From: an uncultured Clostridium sp.
GTDB lineage: Bacteria; Bacillota_I; Bacilli_A; RF39; UBA660
Length of the DNA: 64,000 nt
Assembly (NCBI GenBank): GCA_902492325.1
Contig: CABULC010000004.1
Location: forward strand, 24,833 to 88,832
Direction of reading: 5' to 3'
Shown in pieces: positions 1,285 to 45,866 of this stretch (the stretch's first letter is position 1; the number at the start of each line of letters is the position of its first letter). Made by a program: the position numbers and the translations under genes. The notes beneath the pieces are model-generated. The model did no database searches. It was not told the origin of the DNA and was given only the letters and a program-made list of their open reading frames with translations.

Positions 1285-2151
1285 TTATTCAGTAATATCT
1301 ATATTATTGTCTCCACTATTATTATTGTTATTATTATTATTATTATTATCATTATTAGTATTATCACCATCAGTAGTTTCATCTATATAATCTAGCGGAA
1401 CTTCTCTAGTATTTTGTAATATTAAATTCTTTAAGTAATCACTACTAATAGTAGTAGTTGGATTATAATTAGCATTTCTAGGTATTGGTATTAAATTTTC
1501 AGAACCTGAAATAGCATAAGCCTTTCTAAATAATAAGTGTAAATCTTCAGGTACTGCAAATATAAACGCAGCAGCTTCAGTTTGAGAAGCACTCTTCTTA
1601 AAGATATGGTTTCCTTGACCATCTTTAACAGCAAGAATTTCAATACCCTCAATTAATTTTCCATAAACAAGCTTACCACTATCATATGTTGAATAATATA
1701 AGTCTATTTTATCTCCCGGGAATATTGAGTTACCATATGTTGTCTTTTCATTAACTGGGAAAGAAACAACAGTATAACCTTCTGGTATATTACTCCATGC
1801 TGAATCAGGCATTGTATCCCAAGTTACTACGGATGATGCATAAAATAAACTACCAGCAGGAATAAATGTATTATAGTTTACATACTTACCAATAACATTA
1901 GCATCACTTGTAATAACATTGTCAGTAACCATAGATGAAGCAACTTTAACAATTCCAACATCTTCTTGTGTTATTTCAGATCTTGCTTTAATATCTCTTA
2001 AAGCATAAGGAACACTAATAGCATTAATTGCTTTGTCAACTCTATATCTATATGCAAAGAACAAAATAACTAAACATAAGACACCTGCAGCTATAGTAAC
2101 AACACCTTTATTACCTAAAAGTTTTTTTAATGGATTAGTTTTAGTTTGCAT
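1285..2151 (-). CDS. CpaB/RcpC-like Flp pilus assembly protein (N-terminal TM plus SAF-like domain), paralog B. The C-terminus carries a poly-Asn tract.
   Basis: N-terminal TM VVTIAAGVLCLVILFFAY is followed by a SAF-like motif VKVASSMVTDNVITSDANVIGKYV...PAGSL. It sits immediately upstream of cpaF on the same strand. The C-terminus reads DNNNNNNNNNNSGDNN. Confidence 0.55.
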   Translation of the reverse strand: MQTKTNPLKKLLGNKGVVTIAAGVLCLVILFFAYRYRVDKAINAISVPYALRDIKARSEITQEDVGIVKVASSMVTDNVITSDANVIGKYVNYNTFIPAGSLFYASSVVTWDTMPDSAWSNIPEGYTVVSFPVNEKTTYGNSIFPGDKIDLYYSTYDSGKLVYGKLIEGIEILAVKDGQGNHIFKKSASQTEAAAFIFAVPEDLHLLFRKAYAISGSENLIPIPRNANYNPTTTISSDYLKNLILQNTREVPLDYIDETTDGDNTNNDNNNNNNNNNNSGDNNIDITE

Positions 2152-2956
2152 CAGTTACACCTCCGCTTACATTAATATTCTTTAAATCTTCTTCTTTAAC
2201 ATCAACAGTTTGAGATAATATTAAATTTTGAAGATATGAACTAACAATACGTGTTTCTTTAGGGTTTTCAGAATACTTAGCATTTCTTGGTACTGGGAAT
2301 AGCGTACCTCCGACATACATAGTTTTTCTTAATAATAAGTGCATTTCTTCAGGAACATTAAATATTAAATATTCAGGTTGTGCCGAACCATCAGTATTTT
2401 CAAATATATTATTAAATGAAGCATCAGTAACAGCCATTACTCTAATACTTTCAATAAATTTTCCTACTAATAACTTGCCATCATAATCATCACCAGAATA
2501 ATATAAATCAATATAGTTTCCTGGGAATATTGAGTTACCATATGTTGATTCCATTGAAACAGGTAATGCTACAATTGTATTTCCTTCAGGAATATTGCCA
2601 TAAATACTAGTTGGTAATTCTTCCCATGTTAATAATGTATTTGCATAAAATAAACTATTAATTGGAATATCAACTTCGTTACTTACATACTTACCAATTA
2701 TTAAACTTGATTCAGTAATAACATTAGCAGTTACAATACTTCCTGGAACCTTTCTTGTACCAACCATATCTTCAGTTATAAGTGTTCTAGGTGGTAATTC
2801 TTTAATAGCATAAGGAACCATAGTTGGTTGTGTAGCCTTTTTAATTCTATATGAATAAGCAAAATATATAATAACTAAACAAACAACAACAGCAAAAATA
2901 GTAACAGTATTTTTATTCTTAAAAAATCTTTTAACCCCTACCATAATATTATTCAT
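2141..2956 (-). CDS. CpaB/RcpC-like Flp pilus assembly protein, paralog A
   Basis: Same architecture as 1285..2151 (TM TVTIFAVVVCLVIIYFAY; VPGSIVTANVITESSLIIGKYV; YGNSIFPGNYIDLYY). The tandem paralogs overlap by 11 nt. Confidence 0.55.
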   Translation of the reverse strand: MNNIMVGVKRFFKNKNTVTIFAVVVCLVIIYFAYSYRIKKATQPTMVPYAIKELPPRTLITEDMVGTRKVPGSIVTANVITESSLIIGKYVSNEVDIPINSLFYANTLLTWEELPTSIYGNIPEGNTIVALPVSMESTYGNSIFPGNYIDLYYSGDDYDGKLLVGKFIESIRVMAVTDASFNNIFENTDGSAQPEYLIFNVPEEMHLLLRKTMYVGGTLFPVPRNAKYSENPKETRIVSSYLQNLILSQTVDVKEEDLKNINVSGGVTDAN

Positions 2957-3064: not shown

Positions 3065-3754
3065 TTACATCTCTATTTTAGCAATCATATATTTATTAAT
3101 ATCTTTTAGTAAATATGAAGCATATAAATTACCATTGGAATCATAAAGTAATATCACATCTTTATAAGATTCTCTAATTTTATACTTTTTATTATCATAT
3201 TCATTCATTATATTAATTGAAGAATCAATAGCTTCTTTTATCTTAGCATCAGATAATTTAATCTTTTCTTTGAATTCTTCTTGACTTAACATTTTACCTT
3301 CTTTTATATCATAAATATATGATGTTGTAGGTATTGGATCATTTTTATCATCACAAACATAATAACCATTTCTAACTACACCAAATGTAACAAAGTCATC
3401 ATTTGTATATTGATAATAATTAGAATTAACAAAATATTTATATTTAATATTCTCTTTACAAACTTCATCTTCAACTTCAGAATTTAAAGTTTTCTCACGA
3501 TACTTTTTAGTATCTTCATTAATAGTATTTAAAGCATCCTTTAGTTCCTTAACATCAGTTGAATAACTCATATTTCCAAAATATGTTGTAGCAGTAACAG
3601 GGCACGTAGATTCATCATCACATATCTTTACATATTCTAATTCTTTTAAATCATAATCAATTTTTTTAAAGTCTTCACTTGTATTTTTCTTGCCACATCC
3701 AGTAAGTGAAACAAGAATTAACAAGGAAAAAAACAATATAGAATTTTTTTTCAT
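3065..3754 (-). CDS. Lipoprotein, function unknown
   Basis: Signal peptide with lipobox LTGC (MKKNSILFFSLLILVSLTGCGKK). Confidence 0.55.
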   Translation of the reverse strand: MKKNSILFFSLLILVSLTGCGKKNTSEDFKKIDYDLKELEYVKICDDESTCPVTATTYFGNMSYSTDVKELKDALNTINEDTKKYREKTLNSEVEDEVCKENIKYKYFVNSNYYQYTNDDFVTFGVVRNGYYVCDDKNDPIPTTSYIYDIKEGKMLSQEEFKEKIKLSDAKIKEAIDSSINIMNEYDNKKYKIRESYKDVILLYDSNGNLYASYLLKDINKYMIAKIEM

Positions 3755-3767
3755 TTATTACCTCCTA

Positions 3768-5189
3768 TTAAGGACAATCAGCTGGTTCACAATCGTCAGT
3801 TCTACTAGCATCATATAAACAATTACTATAAATCCAAAAATACTCATCACCATAATATGAACTGTAATATTTTTCACCAGTTGGAGATTGTGATTCTGAT
3901 TTAATTAACTTAACATATGTCATGCCATTAACCTCTTTTATCTTATAAAGTCTTGCTTGTTTCTTTACAGTACCAGCATATAAACTATTTGTATTAGATT
4001 CCTTATATGCATAAACATTTCCATCTCTACAAAATCTTACTTTAGAGCAACCTTCTGGATTTTCTTTACTACAAGCAGAACTCCATACCGCATAAATTGT
4101 AGTATTAGATGTAAATGCTGTATTTGAATTTACATTAACACTTCCGCCATTAGTTTTAGACCATCCTGCAAAAGTATAACCACTTCTACTTGGTTTACAT
4201 AAGTCGCCAACTTTAACATTATACTCAATTGTTTTCACAGTACATCCACTGCCACCTGTATTATTATAAGTTAATGTTAATTTTTTAGGTTTCCAACAAG
4301 CATAATATTTCATATCTTTGGTTATTGTAGTTGTTGTTTCAGCTTTAGTTCCCTTGCATCCAGTTTGATCATACCAACCATTAAAATCATATCCGTCTTT
4401 CTTTGGTGTACACAAGGTTCCTAATTCAGAACCATTAGTTAAACTCTTAGTATCACATTTTGTACCACCAACACTATCGAATTCAACAACCTTATTCTTA
4501 CATGCAGGCTTACTAACTGTTAATTCTTTTCTCTTTACATAAATAGTGCTTCCTTGATATATAACTTTACAATATTCATCACCACTGAAATATTTTTTAC
4601 ATACAGAATTTATTCCATCAGTTTCATTTTTGTATTTTACTGAATCATATTTTAATAATACAGTAGCACCACGAGTTAAATCATATTGATATACACTTCC
4701 ATTAAGATTATATCCATCAGCAGTTGCATTACAGATTATATATCTTTTTACAGATTTAGTTGTAACCTTTTGTTCATTAGAAGTACTATAAATAGTTTCT
4801 AAAATTCCTGTTACTAATGTATCTAAATTTATATCAAATGATTCATTATCAAGTTCTGTAGTACCAGCTCTAGTTCTAATTTTTATGGTAGCCTTAGGTG
4901 GCTCCTCATATATATCATAAAAACTAATTTGATATGTTTTATTATTTGTTACAGATTCAGAGAATCTTCTTAAGAATACCTCAACAAATTTTTGTTCAGA
5001 CATTACTAATTTACCGGTAGTACGGTAAGTGCCATAATCGACAGCGTCGATCATAGCAGCTTCCATAACCTCTCTAGCTAAGTAAAAGTCTTCTTCAGTT
5101 GTTGTAGTCATTCTTTGTATCAATAACATTATTACGATAATAGCAAGTCCCATTGCAATTACGAAATAACCCCAAAACGAATGTTTCAT
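3768..5189 (-). CDS. N-terminally membrane-anchored surface protein with Listeria/Bacteroides-type Flg_new repeats
   Basis: N-terminal TM FVIAMGLAIIVIMLLI. Repeats KDGYDFNGWYD... and RSGYTFAGWSKT...TTIYAVW are typical of PF09479-like repeats. Confidence 0.55.
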   Translation of the reverse strand: MKHSFWGYFVIAMGLAIIVIMLLIQRMTTTTEEDFYLAREVMEAAMIDAVDYGTYRTTGKLVMSEQKFVEVFLRRFSESVTNNKTYQISFYDIYEEPPKATIKIRTRAGTTELDNESFDINLDTLVTGILETIYSTSNEQKVTTKSVKRYIICNATADGYNLNGSVYQYDLTRGATVLLKYDSVKYKNETDGINSVCKKYFSGDEYCKVIYQGSTIYVKRKELTVSKPACKNKVVEFDSVGGTKCDTKSLTNGSELGTLCTPKKDGYDFNGWYDQTGCKGTKAETTTTITKDMKYYACWKPKKLTLTYNNTGGSGCTVKTIEYNVKVGDLCKPSRSGYTFAGWSKTNGGSVNVNSNTAFTSNTTIYAVWSSACSKENPEGCSKVRFCRDGNVYAYKESNTNSLYAGTVKKQARLYKIKEVNGMTYVKLIKSESQSPTGEKYYSSYYGDEYFWIYSNCLYDASRTDDCEPADCP

Positions 5190-5202: not shown

Positions 5203-8200
5203 CTAACTCTTACTTCCGCTTACTTTAATATCACCGAATTTACCATTTTTAACTTCATTTAAGAATGAACTCTTACATTCAGTGAAAGCTTTTAATCCAC
5301 CAGCATCATTTACCATCTTACAATTAGATAATGTTTCATTTAGATATCCACCATTAGAATTTTGAGAAGAGTTATAATCTCTTATTTGTCTAATATTACT
5401 TGGTGTTAATACATATCTATATTCTAAATAATCATCAGTTGTATAAATAGTATCAGCAGTTTTTTCAATTGCATCTATAACATCAGTCTTACTACTCCAG
5501 TTAATACCAGTGTCTCTAATATTTTCTCCTGGGAATAAGTTGCCAACATCAACGTTTCTATAAATAAATCCATATGTTTTAGAATTGGTATCTTTTGGTG
5601 TCCAAACATCACACGAATCAGTTATAACAGGAACACCATCTTTTAATTCATAACAAGGGTTTTTACATTTAGTTAAATCTGTTACACCATCTTCATTAGT
5701 TTCACAGTCATAATATTTAGTTGTGTTATAAACTTCATAATTACATGCATATTCAAAGTCAAACTTATCATTAGATGTTAATCCTAAATTAGAATATTTA
5801 TGTTTAACATCATATGAACCAGTTGAACCAATGTCTTTACCATTTTTATCTTTTCTTGTTTTATTACTTACAGGGAATACTTCTTTTCCAAGTGGAGTAC
5901 TATCTCCTGCACTAGCAGAACCATCATCTTCACTTACAATACCTGTATAAACAGATGTTTTATAAGATTTAGGTTGCCAGAAATCAGCTTCAGTAACTGT
6001 AATGAATGTAGCATAATCATTTGTTGGTAATGTAATAGTTTTAGTAGAACAAGTAGCACTAGTTCCAACACCAGAACATACAATTCTATCAACAGAACCA
6101 GTTTTATTAGTGTTTTCAATTTCTACTTCTTCATCTTGCTTATATTCATAACACTTAATTTTATTGCCATCATTCTTGCAATAATAGTTATTGTTTAAAA
6201 CAGAAGGAACATTATCAACATTTTTACTAAATTCAGTATTAGCTCCATAATCATCTTCATATCCAAGAATTAATGATACGCAATCTTCTTTAGTTTTACA
6301 ATAAGCTTGTTTAAGTAAGTAATCTTTAATTGTACCACTAGCATTAGAATTAGTTGGTGAAACACTAGTTTCAGAAGTATGATATGTAGCTTTTAAATCA
6401 GTATAGAAACGTGAAATCTTTTCTGCGAAAGTCTTTTTATTTTCAGTAGAATCTACATAGAAATTACAACTTTGTAAATCATAATATAATTGCTCAACAG
6501 CTTTAACAGCAGCTTTAAAGTTATTCCATGCTTCTTTTTCATCGTTTCTTAAAGTACCATCTTTTCCCATATTAGTACTTTCCACATCATTATATGCAGT
6601 ACCATTTGTACATGTAGAACTAGTACTCTTCGTAGAATAACAATTACATTTATAAGTTGTTTTTTTAGGTTTGCAGCCTTTTGGTGCCTTAGGTCCACAC
6701 GTTACGCCATCATGACAACTACAAGTTTTAGCATAAACACACCTCTCAGCACCACATGTTGTACCAGTATTAGGTTTACCAGCCATCAAAGTAGTTGATG
6801 ATTGTGAAGGTTTACTTAATGAACATGTAACTTTACCATTACTAGTAGAACAATTACTCTTTAAATTCCAATTATTATAATTTTTATATTTAACAGTATA
6901 TGTATCTACTCCATTGGATACACAATTATAATTAGTGTACTTAGGCCATGTATAAATCTTCTTTGCTCCACATACATTTGTTGCAGAATCTGTACATTTA
7001 GTATTTTGTGTTCTCGTACAACTAGATGCACCTACCTTACTCTTCTTTTCGCAAGCTGTAAAGTATCTATCAGAAGCTGTTGCTTTATATTCCCAATCGT
7101 ATAATACTTCTATTTTCTTCCATTCATTATATTTAGTGAGCATATTTTTAACAGCAGCATTATATAGGTCTAACCATGTTTGACCATCAGCATTCTTTTT
7201 ATTGTAATATATTTCACTAGTACACTGCCTCTTTTGAAGAACTATACTTGTTAATTTATGATTAGTAGTTAAAACTTTATCAATATCGCCTTCGCCTTCA
7301 ATTACTTTAGATGCGATATCATAACTAAATTGCATTCCTGCATATACTTTAGTTTTATTTGCTAAGTAGAAAGTTAACTCTTTTCTACAATAAATATTAC
7401 ATACCTTACTATTAGCACCAGTTTCTTTAGTATAACTGAAGTCTTCTTTCTTACTTGGATCACATGCATTTAAGATACAGTTCATGTAAGGATCTTCATA
7501 AGTCGCTTTTTCATATGTATCATAAGCACCAGCACCTTGTATTCCATAACCTTCACAAGTATTTTTTAAATAACCTTTTGCTTTAAAATTATCACAATAT
7601 TTTTTAGGGTCACAATAACAAGGAACCTTTATAGTATAATGATAAGTTGAGAAACTACTAGAATTTTCACCATTAACATTTTCAACTTCATTTCTTTTTT
7701 CGTTAAATGCAAATGTAAGCATTATTTGAGAAGCATCAGCTCCACTAGCATTATAGTATTGACGAACATAGCCACCCCTACTATAACCTTTAAGTCCTAA
7801 ATCAAGTGTTAATTTTGATTCTGTTTTAACAATTTTTCCACCTGTTCTAGAACATTCTTTTCTTTTTGCTTTTATAACGAAATCGCAAGTTTCTTTTCCT
7901 TCACATTTAGCATCTTCTATTAATGTATTAACAATTTTACCATTTTCATCTTTTAATTCGGCATAAACTTTGCAATCTGATCTTTTATTTAAAATTTCTT
8001 GCTTAGTACAATCAACCATCTTTTCTTGGAATGTCTCTGGAATTTCAGCAACTATAGTATAAGTTGCATCACCATCATCAGTATTTGAAGATTGTGAGAA
8101 AGTAGGATTAGTTGCTGTATTAGATTCATATTTAACAAACTCGTGTTCACCTTTTAAAGCATAATTAAATAATTCAATAGCTTTTTGATATCTTTTATAT

Positions 8201-9363
8201 TTATCATATGTACATAATACACCACGTCCAGGATTAGAATTACATGCAACACCAGTATATCCACTTGCTGCCTTATTTGCAGTCTTTAAATATGCATCTG
8301 TTCTTGTAACAACATTATATTCATCTTCTGCTTCACCTAAACCTGTTACTATTTCACCATCAGATAAGGTGATAGCTCCTTTAGCAGCATAAGCAACCCA
8401 CATTCTAAGTGCAGTAGTAATTTCTGGATAATCATATTTTCCATTATCTACAAATTTAACAGAACCATCAGAATATGTTCCATCTTCTTTAACTGTTTGA
8501 TATAAAATATCAGCAAATCCACAGAAATAATGGTTTTCTGTTTTACATCTAGACAAATCAAAATCTTGATTCAAACAATATTCAGTTCCACCATTAGCTT
8601 CAGTCCTAGGTCCAACCTTACCTGGTTGAATACAATAAGTTTTATCACCATCATCTGTAATATATTTATATATAGCTAATGGGAAATTTCCTATTTTCCA
8701 ACTCTCATCAACACCAGAAGTAACAGTTTTAGCTTTCCAAACATATCCATATTTTACATTGTTCGAACTAAAATTATCATTACTAACACATGAGTTACCA
8801 CATTTTTTAGTAGTAGCCTTACAAGTACCGCAACTAGAAGCACTCGCTCCAACACATGTTTTAAATGTTGTTGTACATCTATATTTTATGCAATTTTTTG
8901 TACAATTCGATTTAAATGTATATGATTTACCATCAAGTGAACATACATGATTTGCAAATTTATCAGAGCATGTTCCAGTAGTTACCTTATTCCAATAACC
9001 AGATATCGTATAAGTATGATTTTGACATGCATATTCACTACTAAACGAAGCACCTTGACAATAATACTTATTAGAAACATATCGGTAAGATCTTAAACAA
9101 ACTATTTTACCATTCTTATAATTAGTAGTTTTTCTACATGCTTCCAATGCTTCTCTAGAGGTATCCCATCTTGCACCAGATTGGTGTTCATCACCATAAG
9201 AAACCTTTTCCCAAGTTTTTTTATCTAAATATTCTTGTTCATAATACCCAACAATAACGCCCTGACCAGCAGAATTAATCTTAAGGCATTCTTTGGCACC
9301 AACACCACTTAGGCAAAAAAGAAAAGAAAATATAATTAATACTTTTAAAAACTTCTTTTTCAT
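5203..9363 (-). CDS. Large (1386 aa) secreted, extremely Cys-rich protein of unknown function
   Basis: Sec-type signal peptide MKKKFLKVLIIFSFLFCLSGVGA. Dozens of Cys residues are spread through the sequence. There is no C-terminal TM or sorting motif and no recognisable catalytic motif. Confidence 0.55.
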   Translation of the reverse strand: MKKKFLKVLIIFSFLFCLSGVGAKECLKINSAGQGVIVGYYEQEYLDKKTWEKVSYGDEHQSGARWDTSREALEACRKTTNYKNGKIVCLRSYRYVSNKYYCQGASFSSEYACQNHTYTISGYWNKVTTGTCSDKFANHVCSLDGKSYTFKSNCTKNCIKYRCTTTFKTCVGASASSCGTCKATTKKCGNSCVSNDNFSSNNVKYGYVWKAKTVTSGVDESWKIGNFPLAIYKYITDDGDKTYCIQPGKVGPRTEANGGTEYCLNQDFDLSRCKTENHYFCGFADILYQTVKEDGTYSDGSVKFVDNGKYDYPEITTALRMWVAYAAKGAITLSDGEIVTGLGEAEDEYNVVTRTDAYLKTANKAASGYTGVACNSNPGRGVLCTYDKYKRYQKAIELFNYALKGEHEFVKYESNTATNPTFSQSSNTDDGDATYTIVAEIPETFQEKMVDCTKQEILNKRSDCKVYAELKDENGKIVNTLIEDAKCEGKETCDFVIKAKRKECSRTGGKIVKTESKLTLDLGLKGYSRGGYVRQYYNASGADASQIMLTFAFNEKRNEVENVNGENSSSFSTYHYTIKVPCYCDPKKYCDNFKAKGYLKNTCEGYGIQGAGAYDTYEKATYEDPYMNCILNACDPSKKEDFSYTKETGANSKVCNIYCRKELTFYLANKTKVYAGMQFSYDIASKVIEGEGDIDKVLTTNHKLTSIVLQKRQCTSEIYYNKKNADGQTWLDLYNAAVKNMLTKYNEWKKIEVLYDWEYKATASDRYFTACEKKSKVGASSCTRTQNTKCTDSATNVCGAKKIYTWPKYTNYNCVSNGVDTYTVKYKNYNNWNLKSNCSTSNGKVTCSLSKPSQSSTTLMAGKPNTGTTCGAERCVYAKTCSCHDGVTCGPKAPKGCKPKKTTYKCNCYSTKSTSSTCTNGTAYNDVESTNMGKDGTLRNDEKEAWNNFKAAVKAVEQLYYDLQSCNFYVDSTENKKTFAEKISRFYTDLKATYHTSETSVSPTNSNASGTIKDYLLKQAYCKTKEDCVSLILGYEDDYGANTEFSKNVDNVPSVLNNNYYCKNDGNKIKCYEYKQDEEVEIENTNKTGSVDRIVCSGVGTSATCSTKTITLPTNDYATFITVTEADFWQPKSYKTSVYTGIVSEDDGSASAGDSTPLGKEVFPVSNKTRKDKNGKDIGSTGSYDVKHKYSNLGLTSNDKFDFEYACNYEVYNTTKYYDCETNEDGVTDLTKCKNPCYELKDGVPVITDSCDVWTPKDTNSKTYGFIYRNVDVGNLFPGENIRDTGINWSSKTDVIDAIEKTADTIYTTDDYLEYRYVLTPSNIRQIRDYNSSQNSNGGYLNETLSNCKMVNDAGGLKAFTECKSSFLNEVKNGKFGDIKVSGSKS

Positions 9364-10056
9364 TTAATTCACCTTCTTTTTCTTTTCCATATAAATTGTA
9401 ATTCCATAAAATATTGAAATTAAAACTATAGGTATAACAGCATAATAACAATACTTCTTTATATATAACCAAAGTTTAGCAGACCATGACATATTTTTTA
9501 TTTCTTCGGCTGAATTTTGTTTGGCAACATAAGCATTAAACTCTTCTTCAGTCATTGTACCAGCATCAGAATCAAATAAACATTTTTCATCTCCAGGATT
9601 ATTAATACAAAATTCAGTAGTCATATATTTATTATATGGATTTGCCTCATAAGTTAAAGTTTTTAACTTCTCATTAGGACAAGCACTATTGCTACTACCA
9701 TATATTGTAATAGTATATTTCTTTTTCTTATTGTGTATTTTTGATCCAATAGCCACAGTACTAAAATCAGAATTAGGATATACAGTATACTCTTCATTTG
9801 TTAAAGAATCTCTAACCTTAGCGTAAATTATATTTGCTTGAGGATACACTAATAAATAATAATGATATTCTTTTTTATGAGTACCTATTAGATTTCCTTC
9901 TTCATCATAAGTATCCATATCTTGGTCTTCAATAGCTTCTATTCTAGCGCTCTCAGCCCAACTATTCAATTGTTCATCTTCGCAAACAGCTAATACTTTA
10001 TCACTGAAAACAAAAACAAGCATTAAGCTAAATAATAGAAATTTTACTTTCTTCAT
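9364..10056 (-). CDS. Small exported protein with a C-terminal TM and a basic tail
   Basis: Signal peptide MKKVKFLLFSLMLVFVFS. C-terminal AVIPIVLISIFYGITIY followed by EKKKKVN. Confidence 0.4.
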   Translation of the reverse strand: MKKVKFLLFSLMLVFVFSDKVLAVCEDEQLNSWAESARIEAIEDQDMDTYDEEGNLIGTHKKEYHYYLLVYPQANIIYAKVRDSLTNEEYTVYPNSDFSTVAIGSKIHNKKKKYTITIYGSSNSACPNEKLKTLTYEANPYNKYMTTEFCINNPGDEKCLFDSDAGTMTEEEFNAYVAKQNSAEEIKNMSWSAKLWLYIKKYCYYAVIPIVLISIFYGITIYMEKKKKVN

Positions 10057-10144
10057 AATTCACCTACTCTTCTATTCAAAATTATAACATAAATGCATTT
10101 TCGTTTTCAATAGATTATAACAAATAAAAAGAGAAATAAATCTC

Positions 10145-10780
10145 TTAAATTCCATGTTTTACTTTTCTAAGTTTAGCATTAAAAGGAATAATTGTTATAA
10201 CACTAACTACTACAACTATTGCTATTTGAATACCCCAATCTTTCATAAAATCAACTATATCATCTATAATAGTTCTATTATCTGGTTCTTGTATTGGTTT
10301 TTCTAGTTCTATACCACCTAAGTTTTTAACTTGTAATTCAAAAATGTCTAAAGTTGGTTTATAATTCAAAAATTGAGATGAACATATACTTAATTTTCCT
10401 TTATATTCATCACATCTATCAGTTTCATAGAATGTATTATAATATGGAAAATTAATACTAATAGTTTTTATTAAAGAACCACAATCAGTCTCAGAAGTAT
10501 TAATTATATATGAAACACTCTTTCCTTCTTCTATATTGCTTATATATATAGTATTTTCAAGATCAGCACTATAATAATTTGTACTATCAGTAATATATAA
10601 ACCAGGTACAACATTATAAAATGTTACACTAAACTTATTAGCAGATTTACTATATGATGTTTCATAAGTTACATTATCTGCTAACTTTTGATATTGCACG
10701 AACGCTTTAGTATCACAAGCAGCAGATACAACATTTGGAAATAGGATCGTCAATAATAATATAATTATATTTTTTTTCAT
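10145..10780 (-). CDS. Small exported protein with a C-terminal TM and a basic tail
   Basis: Signal peptide MKKNIIILLLTILFPNVVSA. C-terminal IQIAIVVVVSVITIIPF followed by NAKLRKVKHGI. Confidence 0.4.
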   Translation of the reverse strand: MKKNIIILLLTILFPNVVSAACDTKAFVQYQKLADNVTYETSYSKSANKFSVTFYNVVPGLYITDSTNYYSADLENTIYISNIEEGKSVSYIINTSETDCGSLIKTISINFPYYNTFYETDRCDEYKGKLSICSSQFLNYKPTLDIFELQVKNLGGIELEKPIQEPDNRTIIDDIVDFMKDWGIQIAIVVVVSVITIIPFNAKLRKVKHGI

Positions 10781-10792
10781 ATCTATGCCTCT

Positions 10793-12415
10793 CTATTCTT
10801 TTATAAGTACAGCATGTACTACTAATCTCTTCTTACCACTAGCACATGTAGATAAAGTTAATATTTTATCACCATACTCTACTTTATCTTTAGTTTTAAA
10901 AGTACTTCTTCCTCTAATTAATTTAACAAATGCATCAAACTCTTTTTTATTTTCAAAATCAGTTTTTAAATAATCTGTAGTATATTCAACTCTATACCCA
11001 GCAAAAATTTTAAATTTATATTGTCCATTAGGAGTGTCATAACTAATTATCATATTTTCACTATTTTTTCTAAAATTAGAAGTTAATACATTTTTCAAAG
11101 TACCAAACATAGTACCATTAAGCATACTATGTCCATATATAATATTATTAGAATCAAATTCATTTTTAGAATTTCTATAGTCTAAATAAACCCACCCCAT
11201 AGAACTCTTCTTTTTATATATATCTCTTTTCAAATAATAACTATTATCATTATGTTGTACTATTGGATAATTAATATTAGTACCTTTAACTGTTAAAAAA
11301 CCAATTGTTTCATTATTAATCTTTTTTAATTTAGAAAATACTTTTTCAAACTGATATTTTGTACTTGCAGGTTTACTAGTATTATTTTTATTACTATTAT
11401 TTCCACCATTTGCATCACTAGTATCATCATCTTCTTCATCAACATCATCTAATCTATCAAGTTCAAAATCATTACCATAAGTGCCATTACTTATAGTAGC
11501 ATTTATTTCATCTATACTCATTTTTTCTACATATTCATAAGATTTAATAATTATTAAGCTAACTAAACTAACATAGATGCATAATAAAGATATAAGTTTT
11601 AAATTATTAAAAGTTAATTGCTTAAATAAATTATTAACAAGAAAAGAATTAGAATAAACTATTCTAAACTCACAAGTATATTCATTCTTACATTTCTTGT
11701 TTACTTCTTTTAACCAAAGAAAATTCTTAGAAATAAAGTTATATTCATCATATCCTTGATGTAAAAAAACTATAATTTCTCTAGATTCATCTTTCTTAAT
11801 TAAATCCATTATTGAAGAAATTAATTCTTTAGAAAATATATATAAATGAATAGATTTAAGATTATAATTTATTCTTAAGAATTCTTTTAAATCACTAACT
11901 AAATTATCATATTTTTCTCTTATTTCTATATTCTTTTTATAATATAAAGTTTCATAATCAAATGCATCCTGCATTAACATAAATCTATCAGATACTTTTT
12001 CTTTATTATATAGTGTTACATTAACACCTTTTCTATTAAATTTATCAATAATAAATTTAGGCATATAATAACAATCTATTTCTTTTAAACTACCTACTTC
12101 TAAGAACATTTCATAATCTTGTAAACTTACTGTTGAAGCAAAATCAAGTCTCAATCTTTTTATATTCAATTCATTTAATAAATAAATACTATATTTAAAA
12201 GTAATTAATCGTTTAATAGTAAGTATTTCTAATCCTTTATCTTTTAATAAATTAATAATTTTACTATAGTTCTTTTTATAATATTTAAGGGAAATATATA
12301 ATGAAGCATTATAAAACTCTAAACTATTAACAAATTTATTTTCTTTTTCATTAATAGTTTTAAAGTCAAAAAATAATGTTTTATCATTAACTGTAAGTAC
12401 AATATACTCTTTCAT
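10793..12415 (-). CDS. Class B sortase domain fused to a ~290-aa N-terminal cytoplasmic extension and a central TM
   Basis: C-terminal domain carries NIIYGHSM and the catalytic TLSTC motif (ILTLSTCASGKKRLVVHAVLI). A TM (LISLLCIYVSLVSLIII) sits around residue 290. The N-terminal 290 aa is uncharacterised. Confidence 0.6.
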   Translation of the reverse strand: MKEYIVLTVNDKTLFFDFKTINEKENKFVNSLEFYNASLYISLKYYKKNYSKIINLLKDKGLEILTIKRLITFKYSIYLLNELNIKRLRLDFASTVSLQDYEMFLEVGSLKEIDCYYMPKFIIDKFNRKGVNVTLYNKEKVSDRFMLMQDAFDYETLYYKKNIEIREKYDNLVSDLKEFLRINYNLKSIHLYIFSKELISSIMDLIKKDESREIIVFLHQGYDEYNFISKNFLWLKEVNKKCKNEYTCEFRIVYSNSFLVNNLFKQLTFNNLKLISLLCIYVSLVSLIIIKSYEYVEKMSIDEINATISNGTYGNDFELDRLDDVDEEDDDTSDANGGNNSNKNNTSKPASTKYQFEKVFSKLKKINNETIGFLTVKGTNINYPIVQHNDNSYYLKRDIYKKKSSMGWVYLDYRNSKNEFDSNNIIYGHSMLNGTMFGTLKNVLTSNFRKNSENMIISYDTPNGQYKFKIFAGYRVEYTTDYLKTDFENKKEFDAFVKLIRGRSTFKTKDKVEYGDKILTLSTCASGKKRLVVHAVLIKE

Positions 12416-12475
12416 TACTTTCTCCTAATATACAAGTATATAATATCATAATTTTAATCAAAAAAAAATATGAAA

Positions 12476-13006
12476 CTATTCAATTCCATATTTTTCAATC
12501 ATTTTATTTAGTACTTTATAATCAATAGTTTTAAGTTCACTACTCATTGCTTCTACTGCTTCACCATCTTTAATATATATTAATAATGGAGCATTAGTTA
12601 TTTCATCTCTTATATTAGAAAATTGTTTTTTTAAAGTTGATATATAATCAGTACTATCACCATAATCAGATACATTCCAATAAATAATATCATCTAATAA
12701 ATCTTTTTTCTCTAAAACTTCATACATTTTCTTTTCATTATTATATATTTCACTATTTCCAGTATAACTTACATATAGAAGTACATCCCCAGTTTCTGTT
12801 AAAGCAAAGTTAACATCTTTGGTATTTATTTGTTTAATTTTTTGATCTGAAAATACACTAGTACTTAATTTATTATTTCTATATGTTAAATAGAATGTCC
12901 TTAAATATAAACAAGCTATGATAACAAGTACTGACACAACTAATACTATAAAATAATTACGTGTTGGTATTTTTTTATCAAATAATTTAAATTTAAATTT
13001 TTTCAT
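12476..13006 (-). CDS. Membrane-anchored protein of unknown function
   Basis: Single N-terminal TM NYFIVLVVSVLVIIACLYL. No motif recognised. Confidence 0.35.
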   Translation of the reverse strand: MKKFKFKLFDKKIPTRNYFIVLVVSVLVIIACLYLRTFYLTYRNNKLSTSVFSDQKIKQINTKDVNFALTETGDVLLYVSYTGNSEIYNNEKKMYEVLEKKDLLDDIIYWNVSDYGDSTDYISTLKKQFSNIRDEITNAPLLIYIKDGEAVEAMSSELKTIDYKVLNKMIEKYGIE

Positions 13007-13147
13007 CTACGTTCCTCCGTTTATCTTACATATTCATTTTAACATAAATGAATATCTTTTTCAAACTATTTATTAATTTAATATATATTATTTATTGTAG
13101 AAAAATTTATTATTTTATTATATAATTCTTTCTAGAGGTATTTTATT

Positions 13148-13714
13148 ATGTATGAAGCTTTCAATAAAGAATTAAGTTATATAAAAGATGAAAAAATTAA
13201 AAATAGTTTAAAAACAATGTTAAATTTATTACCAGAGTATTTTTATCAAATACCAGCAAGTTCTACTGGTAAATATCATCCTGAATTTACTTTAGGTGAT
13301 GGTGGTCTTGTGAGACATACAAAAGCTGCTGTAAGAATAGCATATGAGCTTTTACAAAATCCAGCTATTAATAACTTCACTGATGAAGAAAAAGATTTAA
13401 TATTATTTGCATTAACTGTTCATGATGGCCTTAAGAATGGTAAAGTCAAAAGTAGATATACAGCATTTGATCACCCTATCCAAATGAGTAACTATATTAA
13501 AGAAAATAAAGATAAACTAGAATTAAATGATAATCAAATTGATTTAGTTTGCAGATGTATAGCTACTCATATGGGCCCATGGACAACTGATTTTAATGGT
13601 AACGAAATATTAGAAGCCCCAAAAGACAAATATCAAAGATTTGTACATATGTGTGACTATCTAGCAAGTAGAAAATTCTTAAACATTAAATTTGAAAATA
13701 ATGAAATAAATTAA
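13148..13714 (+). CDS. HD-domain metal-dependent phosphohydrolase
   Basis: H..H and HD motifs (GKYHPEF...VRHTKAAV...ALTVHDGLK...ATHMGPW). Confidence 0.55.
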   Translation: MYEAFNKELSYIKDEKIKNSLKTMLNLLPEYFYQIPASSTGKYHPEFTLGDGGLVRHTKAAVRIAYELLQNPAINNFTDEEKDLILFALTVHDGLKNGKVKSRYTAFDHPIQMSNYIKENKDKLELNDNQIDLVCRCIATHMGPWTTDFNGNEILEAPKDKYQRFVHMCDYLASRKFLNIKFENNEIN

Positions 13715-13934: not shown

Positions 13935-16523
13935 CTAATTATTTTGAATATAAACAATCTTTAAGTTGTTCTTTTTAGCAATCGCAAGAAGATCATCAGT
14001 TAATTTACCAACAATTACTAAAAATGCTGGATTCATAGTATATTTAACAGTTCTATCTTTATTTACCTTAATTAAAGTATGATCATCATATGTAGTAAAT
14101 CTAAGAGAACCTGTTTTAACTAATTTATTATAACCATAACAATTCTTTTCAAGATCACTTATATTCATACATGCATAATGTGTTCCATCATTAGTATAAG
14201 AACATAATATTTTAAAGTCTTGATTATTTATTTCATAAACTACTACACCATCTTCTACTCTTTTTTCAACTATATCAGGACTATCTATATATAATAACTC
14301 TATATCATCAATCGTTACAATTTGATCATTTATTATTTCACATCTATATTTCTTTAATTTATTAAAGAAGTCAATAACACCAATTAAATTTCTATTAGTT
14401 TTATTATTAACTAAATTATCAATGTATCCAAGATATAAATCAGTATCGTTTACATTAAATAATAATTTAATCATGCTAAATAAATTAATTTCTTCAGTGC
14501 TAAATACTTTATTACCATCGTCTTCAATATTTTCTAAATTTTCAGCATCAAATACATCACATAATTCTTTAATAGTAGATATTTCTAACCATCCACTATT
14601 TCCATTTTTATCATAACCTTTATTGAATAAATATCTACATAATAAATTCTTATAAATAGATACATCTTTTATAGCAGATAGTTCATTTATTAATTTTTTA
14701 AGAAGTGATATATCATAAGAAGCAAGTTCACTAGTCTTAGTAATATGTAAATAGTTACCATAAGTGGCAATTAAATCTATTAAATTATCAGTTTCAACAT
14801 CAGTTAACTCTTTACCATCTATATCAGCAATAATCTCTTTATAATAAGTAAAATTCTCTACTGCTTTATATAAAGACTCTTTACTCTCACCATAGATAGA
14901 TTTAAATATATCATAATATTTAATAAATAATTCTCTGTTTTTATTACTCTTCGCTATTAAAAGTAACGTAGACATATTAACAAAATTATATTTAAAATAA
15001 TTATTAAGTAACAAACTAGGTATAAATGATAATCTATTATCAAAAATCTCAAGTGAATAAATATTATATATTTCCGTATCTAATTTAATTTCTTTATTGT
15101 ATGCTGTTGATAATAAATCACTTAATAATTTAATAGCTGATTCTTGAGTTTTACCCTCTTTACCTTTATATAACAAAGATATACCCATAAATAAAGTAAT
15201 CTTTTCAACGTTATTCTTTGTCATAATATTTTTATTAAATAAAACTTTAAATAAATCAAATACACAATTATAATCAACATTAAAATCATATTTATCTATA
15301 TTTTCTAAATATTCATTATATATTTTATTTATAACTTTATAAAAATTATTATACATTTCTTGATCGTAATAAGCTTTAAATAAATTTAAACATCTAGAAT
15401 CACAATCTATAATTATACTTTCTTTTGTTTTTCTATCAGTATCATTATTATAAACTGGTACAACATAAGGAAGTACATAGTTAACATCTATATTAATAAG
15501 TAACATCATTTGTTCAATACTAAGACCTTGTATTATCTTAATTAATCTCTTAGTATATTGGTAACTTATATTATTACTTTTAGCATCAAATCTATATAGT
15601 TTACCTTTGGCATTCAGTAACCCTTTATCTATTAATATATTAACTATATCATTTATATTCTTATTACCTATTTCTTCTAAAAGTCCATAAACAACTTCAT
15701 GATCTTTATTATCTTTACTTTTTAAAGCAGCTATATTTAAATATTTAATTAATTCTATATCATATTTTAATAATTCAGTAAGTGTTGATGTATCTAAATA
15801 ATTTATCATAAATGGATATTCTTTTATAAATTCTTTTTGTACATCTATAGGCATAGTATTAAGAAGTGTGAAATCATTTTTAATTTTATCTACTTGCTTC
15901 TTAACAAAATTATTTCTAGCATCTCCACTAATATACATATTATATGCTTCATCTTCAGCATATTTATTTTGAATTGTTTGACTAGCATATTTTATAAAAC
16001 ATGGATTTACTTTTATAACAAATTCCCATTGTTTATCAGTTAATTTATCTTTAATTTTATTTATTAAATCCTCAGTTGATTTTAAATCACTATTAGATAA
16101 AACAGTTATAACTTCTTTTAAATCTTCCATATAAAGTTTAGCTACATCATCAGGTTGTGAAAAATATAATTTAATATATGAAGTATATTCTTCTGGATCT
16201 AAATCAAGAACATTACTATTCATAAAAAATTTATTACCCGCAAGCCAATCACATACCAAAGCCTTACGTGCCTCTATAGAACCATATCTAAACATAGAAA
16301 GATTACTATTAAGACGAGATTTTTGAAAATCGATTGGTAATATTCTAATTAAAGATGGATGATGAAAAAATAAATAGCTTAAAACAATTTCATTATTTTC
16401 AAATTCTTTAGTGTTTAAATAAGCTTGCTCTATTTCTTTTTCACTTTTATTACTAAGACTCTTAATGAAATCATTTGCTCTTCTTTGAATTTGTCTGCTT
16501 TTCATTTGTTTGAATAGTGACAT
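13935..16523 (-). CDS. Large cytoplasmic protein of unknown function
   Basis: Long ORF with typical codon usage. The likely start is the internal MSLFKQ (RBS agaggtgtgtatATG) rather than the first M of the ORF track. No motif recognised. Confidence 0.5.
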   Translation of the reverse strand: MSLFKQMKSRQIQRRANDFIKSLSNKSEKEIEQAYLNTKEFENNEIVLSYLFFHHPSLIRILPIDFQKSRLNSNLSMFRYGSIEARKALVCDWLAGNKFFMNSNVLDLDPEEYTSYIKLYFSQPDDVAKLYMEDLKEVITVLSNSDLKSTEDLINKIKDKLTDKQWEFVIKVNPCFIKYASQTIQNKYAEDEAYNMYISGDARNNFVKKQVDKIKNDFTLLNTMPIDVQKEFIKEYPFMINYLDTSTLTELLKYDIELIKYLNIAALKSKDNKDHEVVYGLLEEIGNKNINDIVNILIDKGLLNAKGKLYRFDAKSNNISYQYTKRLIKIIQGLSIEQMMLLINIDVNYVLPYVVPVYNNDTDRKTKESIIIDCDSRCLNLFKAYYDQEMYNNFYKVINKIYNEYLENIDKYDFNVDYNCVFDLFKVLFNKNIMTKNNVEKITLFMGISLLYKGKEGKTQESAIKLLSDLLSTAYNKEIKLDTEIYNIYSLEIFDNRLSFIPSLLLNNYFKYNFVNMSTLLLIAKSNKNRELFIKYYDIFKSIYGESKESLYKAVENFTYYKEIIADIDGKELTDVETDNLIDLIATYGNYLHITKTSELASYDISLLKKLINELSAIKDVSIYKNLLCRYLFNKGYDKNGNSGWLEISTIKELCDVFDAENLENIEDDGNKVFSTEEINLFSMIKLLFNVNDTDLYLGYIDNLVNNKTNRNLIGVIDFFNKLKKYRCEIINDQIVTIDDIELLYIDSPDIVEKRVEDGVVVYEINNQDFKILCSYTNDGTHYACMNISDLEKNCYGYNKLVKTGSLRFTTYDDHTLIKVNKDRTVKYTMNPAFLVIVGKLTDDLLAIAKKNNLKIVYIQNN

Positions 16524-16577
16524 ATACACACCTCTATTATAATAATTATTATAACACAATTATTATTTTAAAAATAG

Positions 16578-16620
16578 ATTTAAATATATAAAAAAATAGA
16601 TTATATCTATAATCTATTTT
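16578..16620 (-). terminator. Rho-independent terminator of the prepilin-like gene, overlapping its stop codon
   Basis: Perfect palindrome aatagattata-tc-tataatctatt, followed by a U-run on the minus transcript. Confidence 0.55.
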
Positions 16621-18185
16621 ACTTTGAATACTAAACCAGATGGTTTATAACTTGAATTATTTAAAAGTGTAGCAATAGTATCATTTTTAGCATAACCAAT
16701 TCTAACTTGAGCACCTCTAAAAATATCAGTTATATTGGTTGAACTACTGATATCAAAGCTACTTAAATCAAGTGAAGTAACTTTACTACTTGAAAACATT
16801 CCACCCATATCTGTAACCTTTCTAGTATCAAAACTCGTTAAATTTAAACTAGATGCTTTATTAGCATAAAACATATGATGCATATTAGTAACTTTACTTG
16901 TGTTAAAATTTCTTAAATCAAGTGTAGGAACAACACAATCATAAAACATAGAGCTCATATCAGTAACATTTGATGTATCGAAATTACTAACATCCAAACT
17001 GGTTGCAACACTATTCCAAAACATAAAGCCCATATCCCATACCTTACTAGTGTTAAATTTATTTAAGCCTTTAATTTGCGTTGCAGCTGCCCATCCAAAC
17101 ATATATCTCATATTAGTTACATTGGACGTATCAAAATTACTAACATCTAATGAAGTAGCTTTTGAAGTATAAAACATATATCCCATATCTGTAACTTTAC
17201 TTGTATTAAATTTACTTAAATCTAATGAAGTTGCTCTAGATCCAAAAAACATTCCACTCATATTTTTCACATTACTTGTATCAAAGCTACTCAAATCTAA
17301 ACTGGTTGCTGGATTACTTCTAAACATTCCATTCATATTAGTAACATTGCTTGTATCAAAATTATTTAATCCTTTTATTTCTTTAGCTCTACTTTCATAA
17401 AACATACCACCCATATTTATTATATTAGAAGTATTAATTTTTTCTAAATCAATAGAAGATGCTTTAGTTTGATAAAACATACACGATGTAGATACAACTG
17501 GCTTATTATTTATATACGTGCAAACTTGACTTGTTACAGGGTCAGTTGATTCTTGATCCGTTAAAGCTACACCCCATCCATCAGTGTTCATATTGCTCCA
17601 TCTAAATTTAATATTATAAATGCCACCTTGTTGCTTGTATCTATATGTATATTGTCCATTTACATATTCAGCACCCTGCACCATATCTCCATCAAAAGTA
17701 CAATTAATATAATTAGGGAGATCTGGATTGCTTGGTTTATCTGGCTGATTAGGATTATCAGGATTACTTGGCTCATTTGACCCACAATTATAATCATCTA
17801 AATTTCCATTTTCTAAATCATCTATAGTTAAATCTTCAACAGCTTTGCCATTTAAACTTGCTATCCATTTACCATTAGATACTTTCATATCAGTTACTTT
17901 ACCACTACTATTTAAAATGACACAATATTGAAGTTTCTTTCCTGTCATATCGAGTTTAGAATTGTCTTTTGAATTAATAACATTTGTTTTATTGCCACTT
18001 ATTGAATTTGATAAATACTTTTTTTCTGATTCACTATAAACCTTTTTTGCCTCAGTTAAAAAAATTTCTTTTTGTGCTTTGTTATACATATTTATTACAT
18101 TAGGTAGCGCTATAATTACTAGTATAGCTAAGATTGCTATCACTGCCAGTAACTCTACCAATGTAAAACCTCTTTTATTTTTCAT
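16614..18185 (-). CDS. Type IV prepilin-like N-terminus fused to DUF285/BspA-type repeats (putative minor pilin or tip adhesin)
   Basis: MKNKRGFTLVELLAVIAILAILVIIALP is a class III signal (G at -1, F at +1, E at +5). It is followed by about 10 repeats of F(D/N)TS(N/K)VT(N/D)M..MF, the DUF285 signature. Confidence 0.65.
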   Translation of the reverse strand: MKNKRGFTLVELLAVIAILAILVIIALPNVINMYNKAQKEIFLTEAKKVYSESEKKYLSNSISGNKTNVINSKDNSKLDMTGKKLQYCVILNSSGKVTDMKVSNGKWIASLNGKAVEDLTIDDLENGNLDDYNCGSNEPSNPDNPNQPDKPSNPDLPNYINCTFDGDMVQGAEYVNGQYTYRYKQQGGIYNIKFRWSNMNTDGWGVALTDQESTDPVTSQVCTYINNKPVVSTSCMFYQTKASSIDLEKINTSNIINMGGMFYESRAKEIKGLNNFDTSNVTNMNGMFRSNPATSLDLSSFDTSNVKNMSGMFFGSRATSLDLSKFNTSKVTDMGYMFYTSKATSLDVSNFDTSNVTNMRYMFGWAAATQIKGLNKFNTSKVWDMGFMFWNSVATSLDVSNFDTSNVTDMSSMFYDCVVPTLDLRNFNTSKVTNMHHMFYANKASSLNLTSFDTRKVTDMGGMFSSSKVTSLDLSSFDISSSTNITDIFRGAQVRIGYAKNDTIATLLNNSSYKPSGLVFKVK

Positions 18186-45829: not shown

Positions 45830-45866
45830 CGCTAAAACAAATAAAAAGTACTATTTCTAGTACTAA
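45830..45866 (-). terminator. Rho-independent terminator after the lipoprotein gene, overlapping its stop codon
   Basis: agtacta-tttc-tagtact followed by UUUUUAUUUGUUUU on the minus transcript. Confidence 0.5.

Follow-up and report, generated by a model that had tools for sequence, protein, structure and literature searches.

The window analysed here is the whole stretch of 64,000 nucleotides (64 kb; GC ~21-31%) from contig CABULC010000004.1 of an uncultured Clostridium sp. On its minus strand it encodes a 540-aa protein in which a class B sortase (SrtB) catalytic domain follows a large N-terminal domain (N-domain), a single transmembrane (TM) helix and a linker. This protein belongs to a lineage-specific SrtB subfamily with a novel cytoplasmic domain, and its gene is part of a surface-appendage operon that is mostly unannotated. 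Sortases are the textbook case of a minimal enzyme held at the membrane by an anchor. Their localisation and substrate targeting are only partly understood, with short charged tails and membrane microdomains credited for their positioning. An SrtB family with a large, selected cytoplasmic domain would give a handle on spatial or partner-dependent control of sorting, and its architecture would surprise a sortase specialist. We give an even chance to the reading that the protein is a competent SrtB acting on [N/S]PxTG signals, equipped with a cytoplasmic, leucine-rich-repeat (LRR)-like docking or positioning domain whose best candidate partner would be the pilus/secretion machine encoded by the adjoining gene cluster. 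The initial annotation had described an SrtB-like domain preceded by a TM segment and a large uncharacterised cytoplasmic region, and the open reading frame (ORF), its Shine-Dalgarno sequence, the structural models and a conserved protein family all agree with that description. The gene has the following parts:

10793 to 12415, minus strand: fusion of N-domain, TM helix, linker and class B sortase, 540 aa (whole ORF including the stop codon)
12421 to 12426, minus strand: Shine-Dalgarno sequence AGGAGA, 5 nt before the ATG at 12415
11606 to 12415, minus strand: novel cytoplasmic alpha/beta-repeat (LRR-like) domain, residues 1-270 (AlphaFold2 model, no family matches)
11537 to 11602, minus strand: single TM helix, residues ~272-293, a predicted type II anchor (N-in/C-out); hydrophobic segment LKLISLLCIYVSLVSLIIIKSY
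11363 to 11536, minus strand: juxtamembrane helix and, behind it, an extracellular linker that is acidic, disordered and of low complexity, residues ~294-351 (from model confidence, alignment and substitution rates)
10796 to 11362, minus strand: class B sortase catalytic domain, residues ~352-540, with H429, C524 in TLSTC, and R530 (from Pfam, NCBIfam, alignment and structure)

The fusion is genuine and conserved

The fusion architecture is genuine and conserved, and is no annotation artefact. The gene starts with the ATG at 12415 and runs for 540 codons as a single ORF, a length far exceeding chance expectation in DNA of ~23% GC. The frame is unbroken in all seven fusion genes that were translated (those of the window and of the related loci L002-L004, L006, L010 and L011), and the exact window protein recurs on many independent contigs. 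With the N-terminal 311 residues as query we recovered 186 protein clusters (90% identity level, E <= 1e-3), nearly all of them 530-545 aa long and carrying PF04203. When residues 1-270 were run with HMMER exhaustively against 1.84 billion representatives, 64 of these (50% level) matched, reaching down to 24% identity; the full-length ones measure 513-565 aa and match the N-domain at their own residues 1-270.

Purifying selection on the N-domain is as strong as on the catalytic domain. In pairwise comparisons of the window gene with four relatives, the ratio of nonsynonymous to synonymous substitution rates (dN/dS) was 0.10-0.22 in the N-domain and 0.06-0.18 in the catalytic domain; the linker reached 0.37-0.73. 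Because the fusion is family-wide and under purifying selection, we regard the extension as a selected, integral part of the protein.

The initial annotation had asked whether the extension might be an artefact, with the N-terminal 290 residues forming a separate upstream gene and the true sortase start lying near the TM segment. We consider the probability of this negligible. Nothing was found in its favour: the few shorter homologues come from short contigs or are frameshifted (P0104, P0197 and P0198 are truncated, frameshifted or chimeric). Against it stand the uninterrupted frame in the seven translated genes and the uniform length (~513-565 aa) of the full-length homologues, together with the strong Shine-Dalgarno sequence ahead of the first ATG and the lack of any other start codon or ribosome-binding site directly before the TM segment. 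These points, with the selection on the N-domain and the recurrence of the exact protein, rule out an internal start or a split gene, and the comparative data refute the artefact.

The family searches yielded no credible case of the N-domain as a stand-alone protein or in another fusion. P0198, in which the N-domain is followed by acyltransferase-like TM segments on a 2-kb contig, was considered as a second architecture and judged a probable chimera. Close relatives (77-90% identity) are human-gut metagenome-assembled genomes (MAGs) labelled Bacilli, Mollicutes or 'bacterium', and the fusion is a lineage-restricted family in uncultured low-GC gut Bacilli (MAGs labelled Bacilli, Mollicutes and Tenericutes). 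In relatives the context is chromosomal (UvrD/PcrA, QueG, LtaS), and a plasmid or phage origin was rejected, as a megablast search of 9000-13100 against plasmid and phage collections matched nothing. Related contigs carry genes for MurC, Amidase_3, LysM, glucosaminidase and LtaS; a cell wall therefore exists to which proteins can be anchored. Our searches of the literature on sortases with Tad systems or with N-terminal extensions or fusions turned up no account of a sortase bearing a large domain in the cytoplasm.

The catalytic domain is that of a class B sortase

By every testable criterion except its N-terminal architecture, the protein is a member of the class B sortases. Residues 374-537 match PF04203 (E = 8e-13, 48.6 bits against a cutoff of 26.6), and residues 336-532 match the class B sortase equivalog TIGR03064 above its cutoff (175.1 against 153.75 bits). 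The nearest sequences of solved structure are the SrtBs of B. anthracis, C. difficile and S. aureus (E = 5e-37 to 4e-32), on whose structures the modelled C-terminal domain superposes at 1.7-2.2 A over ~183 residues. When the full-length model was compared with the PDB by Foldseek, all of the top 19 matches were SrtBs (root-mean-square deviation (rmsd) 1.7-3.2 A, target template-modelling (TM-) score 0.71-0.90). None of the 42 aligned homologues departs from H429, C524 (in TLSTC) or R530. The TLSTC- and His-containing SrtB-like domain recognised at the outset is thus upheld by the family model, the superposition and the invariant residues. One feature departs from the class: a folded 270-aa domain stands before the single TM segment where a class B sortase has a short stub, unlike in any of the PDB-matched SrtBs.

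The sortase domain is complete with its active site intact, so far as sequence can tell, and is probably catalytically competent, with ordinary enzyme chemistry. The domain could instead be a non-catalytic structural subunit, a pseudo-enzyme built into a pilus or secretion machine. Scans of the window found no nearby substrate, and the catalytic Cys is replaced in rare relatives (TLSTY in P0134, TLTTF in P0153), both of which a pseudo-enzyme would accommodate. We nevertheless think it very improbable: the catalytic residues and TLSTC are invariant in the 42 close homologues, [TS]LSTC is retained in 24 of the 27 distant family members checked, and the catalytic domain evolves under the low dN/dS given above (0.06-0.18).

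The N-terminal domain is a new family

The N-domain represents a new domain family, for which Pfam, NCBIfam and the PDB contain no relative. When it was modelled alone with the family alignment, AlphaFold2 returned a mean predicted local distance difference test score (pLDDT) of 89 and a predicted TM-score (pTM) of 0.79; in the full-length AlphaFold model, residues 1 to ~255 are likewise well ordered (pLDDT ~90). The modelled domain begins with a beta-hairpin cap, after which eight short parallel strands follow at intervals of 20-34 residues, each with a helix behind it. The strands carry L-K-x-[I/L]-x-[L/C] motifs of the LxxLxL type. The TM segment is the only hydrophobic segment of the protein and is modelled within a long helix (256-310), and the linker behind it is disordered (pLDDT 25-45 in the full-length model) and varies in both length and sequence in the alignment. 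The protein has no signal peptide and a single TM segment, and its sortase domain must be outside; we infer from this that the N-terminus faces the cytoplasm.

Sequence searches with the N-domain found no Pfam family, LRR families included, even at E <= 5, and no NCBIfam match beyond the sortase models at E <= 0.01. Against PDB sequences, the N-domain family profile found no convincing relative, the hits being a de novo TIM barrel (E = 7e-4) and the LRR protein U2A' (E = 0.06). Foldseek returned nothing at E < 1e-3 for the N-domain in the PDB, where generic beta/alpha repeats came up at TM-scores of ~0.25 (TIM barrels and the LRRs of NLRP, SKP2 and SDS22), and its top matches in BFVD were giant-virus LRR and F-box-LRR proteins (E = 1e-4, TM-score 0.28). 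The modelled domain resembles an LRR-type scaffold for protein binding; (beta-alpha)8 barrels match it just as weakly, so that its assignment to the LRR class is tentative.

Only N183 and L186 of the N-domain are invariant family-wide, and the domain therefore has no catalytic constellation. Cys115, Tyr159, Ile189 and Asn262 are nearly invariant. The conservation appears to be a structural pattern rather than a catalytic one, with no catalytic or sensor signature among the aligned sequences. An enzymatic N-domain was considered on account of the motifs DES..FLHQ and CEF of the close homologues, and was rejected, as distant members have lost them.

Sorting signals accompany distant family members

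The initial annotation had noted that no canonical substrates lie near the sortase gene, and our scans bear this out. Among 211 stop-to-stop segments of at least 50 aa in the 64-kb window, neither a regular-expression scan nor a shape scan (signal peptide, C-terminal TM segment and basic tail) found a credible [LNSP]PxT[GN]-type sorting signal. At four loci of distant family members, proteins encoded divergently adjacent to the sortase fusion do carry such signals:

L016 (P0163), N-domain identity ~26%: 401-aa Flg_new protein, divergently adjacent; SPKTG, TM segment and KRKNK
L017 (P0144), N-domain identity 32-34%: 374-aa protein between the PedC-like gene and the sortase gene; NPKTG, TM segment and RKQK
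L019 (P0191), N-domain identity 27%: 291-aa protein; NPTTG, TM segment and KKKK
L021 (P0183), N-domain identity 26%: 665-aa SpaA-type adhesin; NPRTG, TM segment and KKTDKR

By the look of these neighbours, the fusion family includes enzymes with classical class B-type [N/S]PxTG substrates. Because four distant members adjoin proteins with such signals, the window enzyme is most likely an ordinary [N/S]PxTG sortase as well, and its substrate may be encoded elsewhere in the genome. Searches by tblastn with the neighbour proteins of L017 (NPKTG), L018 and L019 (NPTTG) found no homologue in the window or at the close loci.

Another uncultured Bacilli MAG encodes a canonical short SrtB of 258 aa (L008, 2797-5417) that is 44-46% identical to the window's catalytic domain; its gene directly follows that of a 594-aa protein ending in NPSTYD, a TM segment and a basic tail. 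This enzyme serves well for comparison as an SrtB with a short N-terminus.

The sortase gene lies in a pilus/secretion operon

The sortase fusion is the second gene of a long minus-strand array, and we found no terminator-like site on that strand from 13006 to 1. The other members of the array, in order of transcription, are:

12476 to 13006, minus strand: PedC-like/DUF6568 protein with a thioredoxin fold, 176 aa, membrane-anchored; the operon begins with this gene (PF20207, E = 2e-24)
10145 to 10780, minus strand: 211-aa bitopic protein with signal peptide, Cys-containing ectodomain, C-terminal TM segment and tail ...KLRKVKHGI
9364 to 10056, minus strand: 230-aa bitopic protein with signal peptide, C-terminal TM segment with conserved YWYxxVIP, and non-conserved basic tail
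5203 to 9363, minus strand: 1386-aa secreted Cys-rich giant protein with neither C-terminal anchor nor Pfam domain
3768 to 5189, minus strand: 473-aa protein with DUF5411 N-terminus and Listeria-Bacteroides (Flg_new) repeats (PF17424, E = 6e-48; PF09479, E = 8e-24)
3065 to 3754, minus strand: 229-aa predicted lipoprotein (LTGC lipobox)
1285 to 2956, minus strand: two CpaB/RcpC-like proteins of 271 and 288 aa (PF16976, E = 1e-5 and 1e-6)
1 to 1258, minus strand: VirB11/TadA(CpaF)-type secretion ATPase (PF00437 T2SSE, E = 3e-28); the frame is open at the window edge and its C-terminus lies outside the window

A promoter-like site upstream of the PedC-like gene (13064-13036) does not score above chance. 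The gap between the sortase gene and the 211-aa gene is 12 nt in the window. The order PedC-like, sortase, 211, 230, giant, DUF5411, CpaB, CpaB, ATPase is conserved in L003-L007, L010 and L011; in the window, the 229-aa lipoprotein gene stands between the DUF5411 and CpaB-like genes. The upstream PedC-like partner is kept in L010, L011, L015 and L017. The association of sortase and cluster persists from 100% to ~29% N-domain identity, and in L017 and L018 (29-32%) the sortase still adjoins the same cluster. The fusion family is thus repeatedly linked to an ATPase-driven pilus/secretion cluster in abundant uncultured gut Bacilli, and the operon itself, with its PedC-like, 211-aa, 230-aa, Cys-rich giant and DUF5411 genes, is flagged here as conserved and largely unannotated.

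The two CpaB-like proteins score 29.2 and 25.9 bits against PF16976 (cutoff 28.8), and 35-36 bits against TIGR03177 (E = 5e-9 and 8e-9), below its cutoff of 71. The ATPase is about equally close to the NCBIfam models for VirB11 (6e-33), the TadA family (2e-30) and TrbB, all far below their cutoffs, and because of this we label the cluster a type IV-filament/Tad- or VirB11-like system and not a bona fide Tad locus. The DUF5411 protein is pilin-like by eye, having a hydrophobic N-terminal helix. The cluster of L010 is complete and continues with two polytopic membrane proteins (300 and 272 aa), small proteins that are pilin-like by eye, and a 326-aa protein; its 300- and 272-aa membrane proteins and 91- and 169-aa small proteins match no T2SSF, Flp or TadE model in Pfam or NCBIfam, and the 326-aa protein likewise has no match to Tad models. 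No prepilin peptidase was seen in the window.

Two side observations bear on the kind of machine encoded. A HerA/CedD-like DUF87 ATPase gene lies between the sortase fusion and the cluster in L017 (8036-9793, minus strand) and L018 (2836-4698, minus strand), and in the L010 cluster the last of the small membrane proteins shows weak similarity to pilin-like proteins of conjugal T4SSs. Because of these two features, the cluster may be DNA-transfer-like rather than an adhesive Tad pilus.

The PedC-like/DUF6568 protein, always encoded before the sortase, is without CxxC and is probably redox-inactive. A role for it as disulfide catalyst for the Cys-rich neighbours was considered and dropped, there being no CxxC in the 176-aa sequence. 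We found no functional studies of DUF5411 or DUF6568 in the literature. The module of a bitopic protein (~210-230 aa) and a Cys-rich secreted protein (1000-1400 aa), in cases with a DUF5411 protein, occupies 5203-10056 (minus strand) in the window, 12256-21152 in L011 and 1229-9343 in L010. It is duplicated in L011 and has moved upstream of the PedC-like gene in L010, behaving like a variable adhesin cassette, and its proteins carry no Pfam domain except DUF5411. Upstream of the operon, an 874-aa protein with no Pfam or NCBIfam match (13935-16559, minus strand) and a divergent HD-domain protein (13148-13714, plus strand) are encoded in synteny in all close relatives and in L010 and L011.

The 211-aa and 230-aa proteins

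The initial annotation had drawn attention to the exported 211-aa and 230-aa neighbours, whose C-terminal TM segment and basic tail resemble a sorting signal lacking its pentapeptide. That shape is real; the idea that the two proteins are motif-less substrates was not supported. In the form we examined, the 211-aa protein, and perhaps the 230-aa protein, would be a non-canonical substrate whose tail KxR[KR]xxHGI-COOH is read by the N-domain while the ectodomain cleaves near [KR]-T-[FIL] upstream of the TM segment. The gene for the 211-aa protein comes right after the sortase gene, both in the window and in L001-L007, L010, L011 and L014, and in relatives the two genes abut or overlap; the window scans, as said, found no canonical substrate nearby. 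In 11 of the 15 sequences of the 211 family, a Pro/acid-rich segment and [KR]-T precede the TM segment. Conservation within the C-terminal region is highest at its very end, in the cytoplasmic tail F-N-x-K-[LFY]-R-[KR]-x-x-H-G-I-COOH (n = 15).

We regard such a substrate as improbable. The Thr ahead of the amphipathic helix and TM segment is missing in two of the 15 sequences and the preceding K/R in two more, the Pro position is not fixed, and T-x-x-[D/E] fits a helix N-cap; [KR]-T-[FIL], being neither invariant nor incompatible with such a cap, was rejected as a sorting motif of the family. In L017 and L018, the 211 and 230 families open the pilus/secretion operon and are divided from the sortase by the opposite-strand HerA/DUF87 ATPase gene, while the direct neighbour of the sortase is the true NPKTG protein in L017 and its contig-truncated homologue in L018. 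The signals beside distant members are of SrtB type, and the catalytic domain is an unremarkable SrtB. The conserved 211 tail is unlike a discarded sorting signal and so suggests a protein that stays in the membrane and has a partner in the cytoplasm. In the 230 family, conservation lies in the TM start (YWYxxVIP), and the tail is merely generic and basic. On these sequence features, we prefer to see in the two proteins bitopic structural parts of the cluster that stay anchored in the membrane, rather than substrates. A lipoprotein reading of both was also rejected, as the residues ahead of the first Cys are unlike a lipobox, and we treated them as signal-peptidase-I substrates.

A possible role for the cytoplasmic domain

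We propose that the short cytoplasmic stub usual in SrtB is replaced here by a 270-residue, non-enzymatic, LRR-like alpha/beta-repeat domain, so that the protein would run from this cytoplasmic domain through one TM helix and a flexible acidic linker to an extracellular SrtB domain. The ectodomain would cleave its substrate at an [N/S]-P-x-T-G sorting signal and attach it to peptidoglycan. The cytoplasmic domain would serve as a protein-binding scaffold that ties the enzyme to a partner in the cytoplasm or membrane, or positions it there. The neighbouring pilus/secretion machine with its CpaB-like proteins and VirB11/TadA-type ATPase is the foremost candidate; the conserved cytoplasmic tail of the co-transcribed 211-aa protein is another. 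Anchoring would then take place where the pilus/secretion machine is built. The architecture and its conservation, the purifying selection, the intact active site, the synteny and the canonical substrates beside distant members are established by the data; the topology, the substrate motif of the window enzyme and the docking role of the N-domain are the inferred elements of this proposal. We favour a positioning scaffold because linkage to the same cluster persists to ~29% N-domain identity, and we favour the cluster machinery or the 211 tail as partner because the genes abut and the cytoplasmic tail is conserved. Regulated or signal-coupled sorting, suggested in the initial annotation, is possible.

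Several observations weigh against this proposal. We found no [N/S]PxTG substrate encoded in the 64-kb window or within 10 kb in close relatives. The LRR assignment is weak, with no Pfam LRR match and Foldseek TM-scores of ~0.25-0.28. The cluster is only loosely Tad-like, and TadB/TadC-type platform proteins are unconfirmed by Pfam and NCBIfam in L010. L012, L016, L019, L020 and L021 have no pilus/secretion cluster on the recovered DNA, which covers at most 10 kb on each side and far less for L012 and L020, whose contigs measure 9.6 and 6.7 kb; with the cluster absent near these five distant members, the N-domain is therefore not exclusively a docking module for it.

The last point leads to the principal rival, that the N-domain serves the lineage's housekeeping SrtB as a general module for localisation or regulation (for example, for targeting to division or secretion sites, or for auto-inhibition), has nothing to do with the cluster, and adjoins it for historical reasons. 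Standalone members (L016, L019 and L021) do sit in housekeeping contexts with canonical substrates of their own, and the N-domain residues shared by the close clade (DES..FLHQ, CEF) are not kept across the family as a whole. The sortase gene, however, stays next to the same cluster from 100% to ~29% N-domain identity, and in the clade of the window protein it sits within the operon, on a strand with no terminator-like site from 13006 to 1. We consider a general module unlikely, while taking it seriously. Were the N-domain merely a localisation tag, the family would be a modest addition to sortase diversity.

A stronger version of docking is a 'machine-coupled' or 'inside-out' sortase, in which the N-domain binds the 211 tail or the ATPase or platform, so that partner or substrate choice and the anchoring site are set from inside and not by the pentapeptide alone. 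We are doubtful of it, rating it distinctly lower than a general module. If true, inside-dictated sortase targeting would be a mode not described for any class.

Relation to known systems

The window protein shares its catalytic sequence with the class B sortases of B. anthracis (2oqw/1rz2), C. difficile (4ux7/5gyj) and S. aureus (1ng5), at 33-41% identity in structural alignments, as well as their common fold (rmsd 1.7-2.2 A), their TLSTC Cys, His and Arg, and, by prediction, their type II membrane topology. B. anthracis and C. difficile SrtB take NPKTG/SPKTG-type substrates, as are encoded beside distant members of the fusion family. Other SrtBs are not known to carry more than a short cytoplasmic stub ahead of their TM segment, whereas the window protein has a folded 270-aa cytoplasmic domain and an acidic linker of ~55 aa. 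It also differs from them in lacking a haem-uptake (isd) context and, within its clade, a substrate gene immediately nearby.

Locus-dedicated pilus sortases, such as Spy0129 (class B, 3psq) and the S. pneumoniae type II pilus SrtB (4y4q), likewise combine a class B fold with a place inside a surface-appendage gene cluster, and pilus-type class B sortases of this kind occupy ranks 15-19 among the Foldseek matches of the full-length model. Those clusters make sortase-polymerised pili from pilins bearing cell wall sorting signals, whereas the window cluster is of the ATPase-driven type IV-filament/Tad- or VirB11-like kind and none of its proteins has a sorting pentapeptide.

With LRR domains of the RNI-like/F-box-LRR type, the modelled N-domain appears to have in common strand-plus-helix units of 20-30 residues, LxxLxL-like motifs and conserved Asn and Cys; it differs in having no Pfam LRR match at E <= 5 and no PDB match at E < 1e-3. 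Tad/Flp (type IVc) and VirB11-type loci appear to share with the cluster the CpaB/RcpC-like proteins, the T2SSE-family ATPase and small proteins that are pilin-like by eye, whereas TadB/TadC, Flp and TadV are unconfirmed in the window-type cluster. Compared with Tad systems, the cluster has as extra conserved parts the 211- and 230-aa proteins, the Cys-rich giant, the DUF5411 and PedC-like proteins and the sortase fusion, and some relatives add the HerA/CedD-like ATPase.

Other surface-protein genes in the window

About 3.6 kb upstream of the operon, a 523-aa modular pilin (16614-18185, minus strand) carries a type IV pilin N-methylation signal (PF07963) and five DUF285 repeats. Farther along, a 2446-aa BspA-type LRR_5 and CBM_2 giant (21190-28530, minus strand) has no sorting signal and no obvious signal peptide at its called start; L011 encodes a homologue in synteny. 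On the minus strand, 28540-29082, 34749-35303 and 47505-48125 each encode a small protein that has a TM segment at either end. The first two match Peptidase_S26 (SipW-like), and the third, with no Pfam match, is grouped with them by shape only. All three genes adjoin genes for small secreted proteins, one of which (48822-49388) weakly matches camelysin/Peptidase_M73, and the sets look like repeated TasA/SipW-style cassettes. A 240-aa protein (45863-46585, minus strand) has a signal-like N-terminus, a C-terminal TM segment and a KKIN tail with no pentapeptide, and the 317-aa protein encoded beside it gives weak Peptidase_C39_2 and T4SS_pilin matches.

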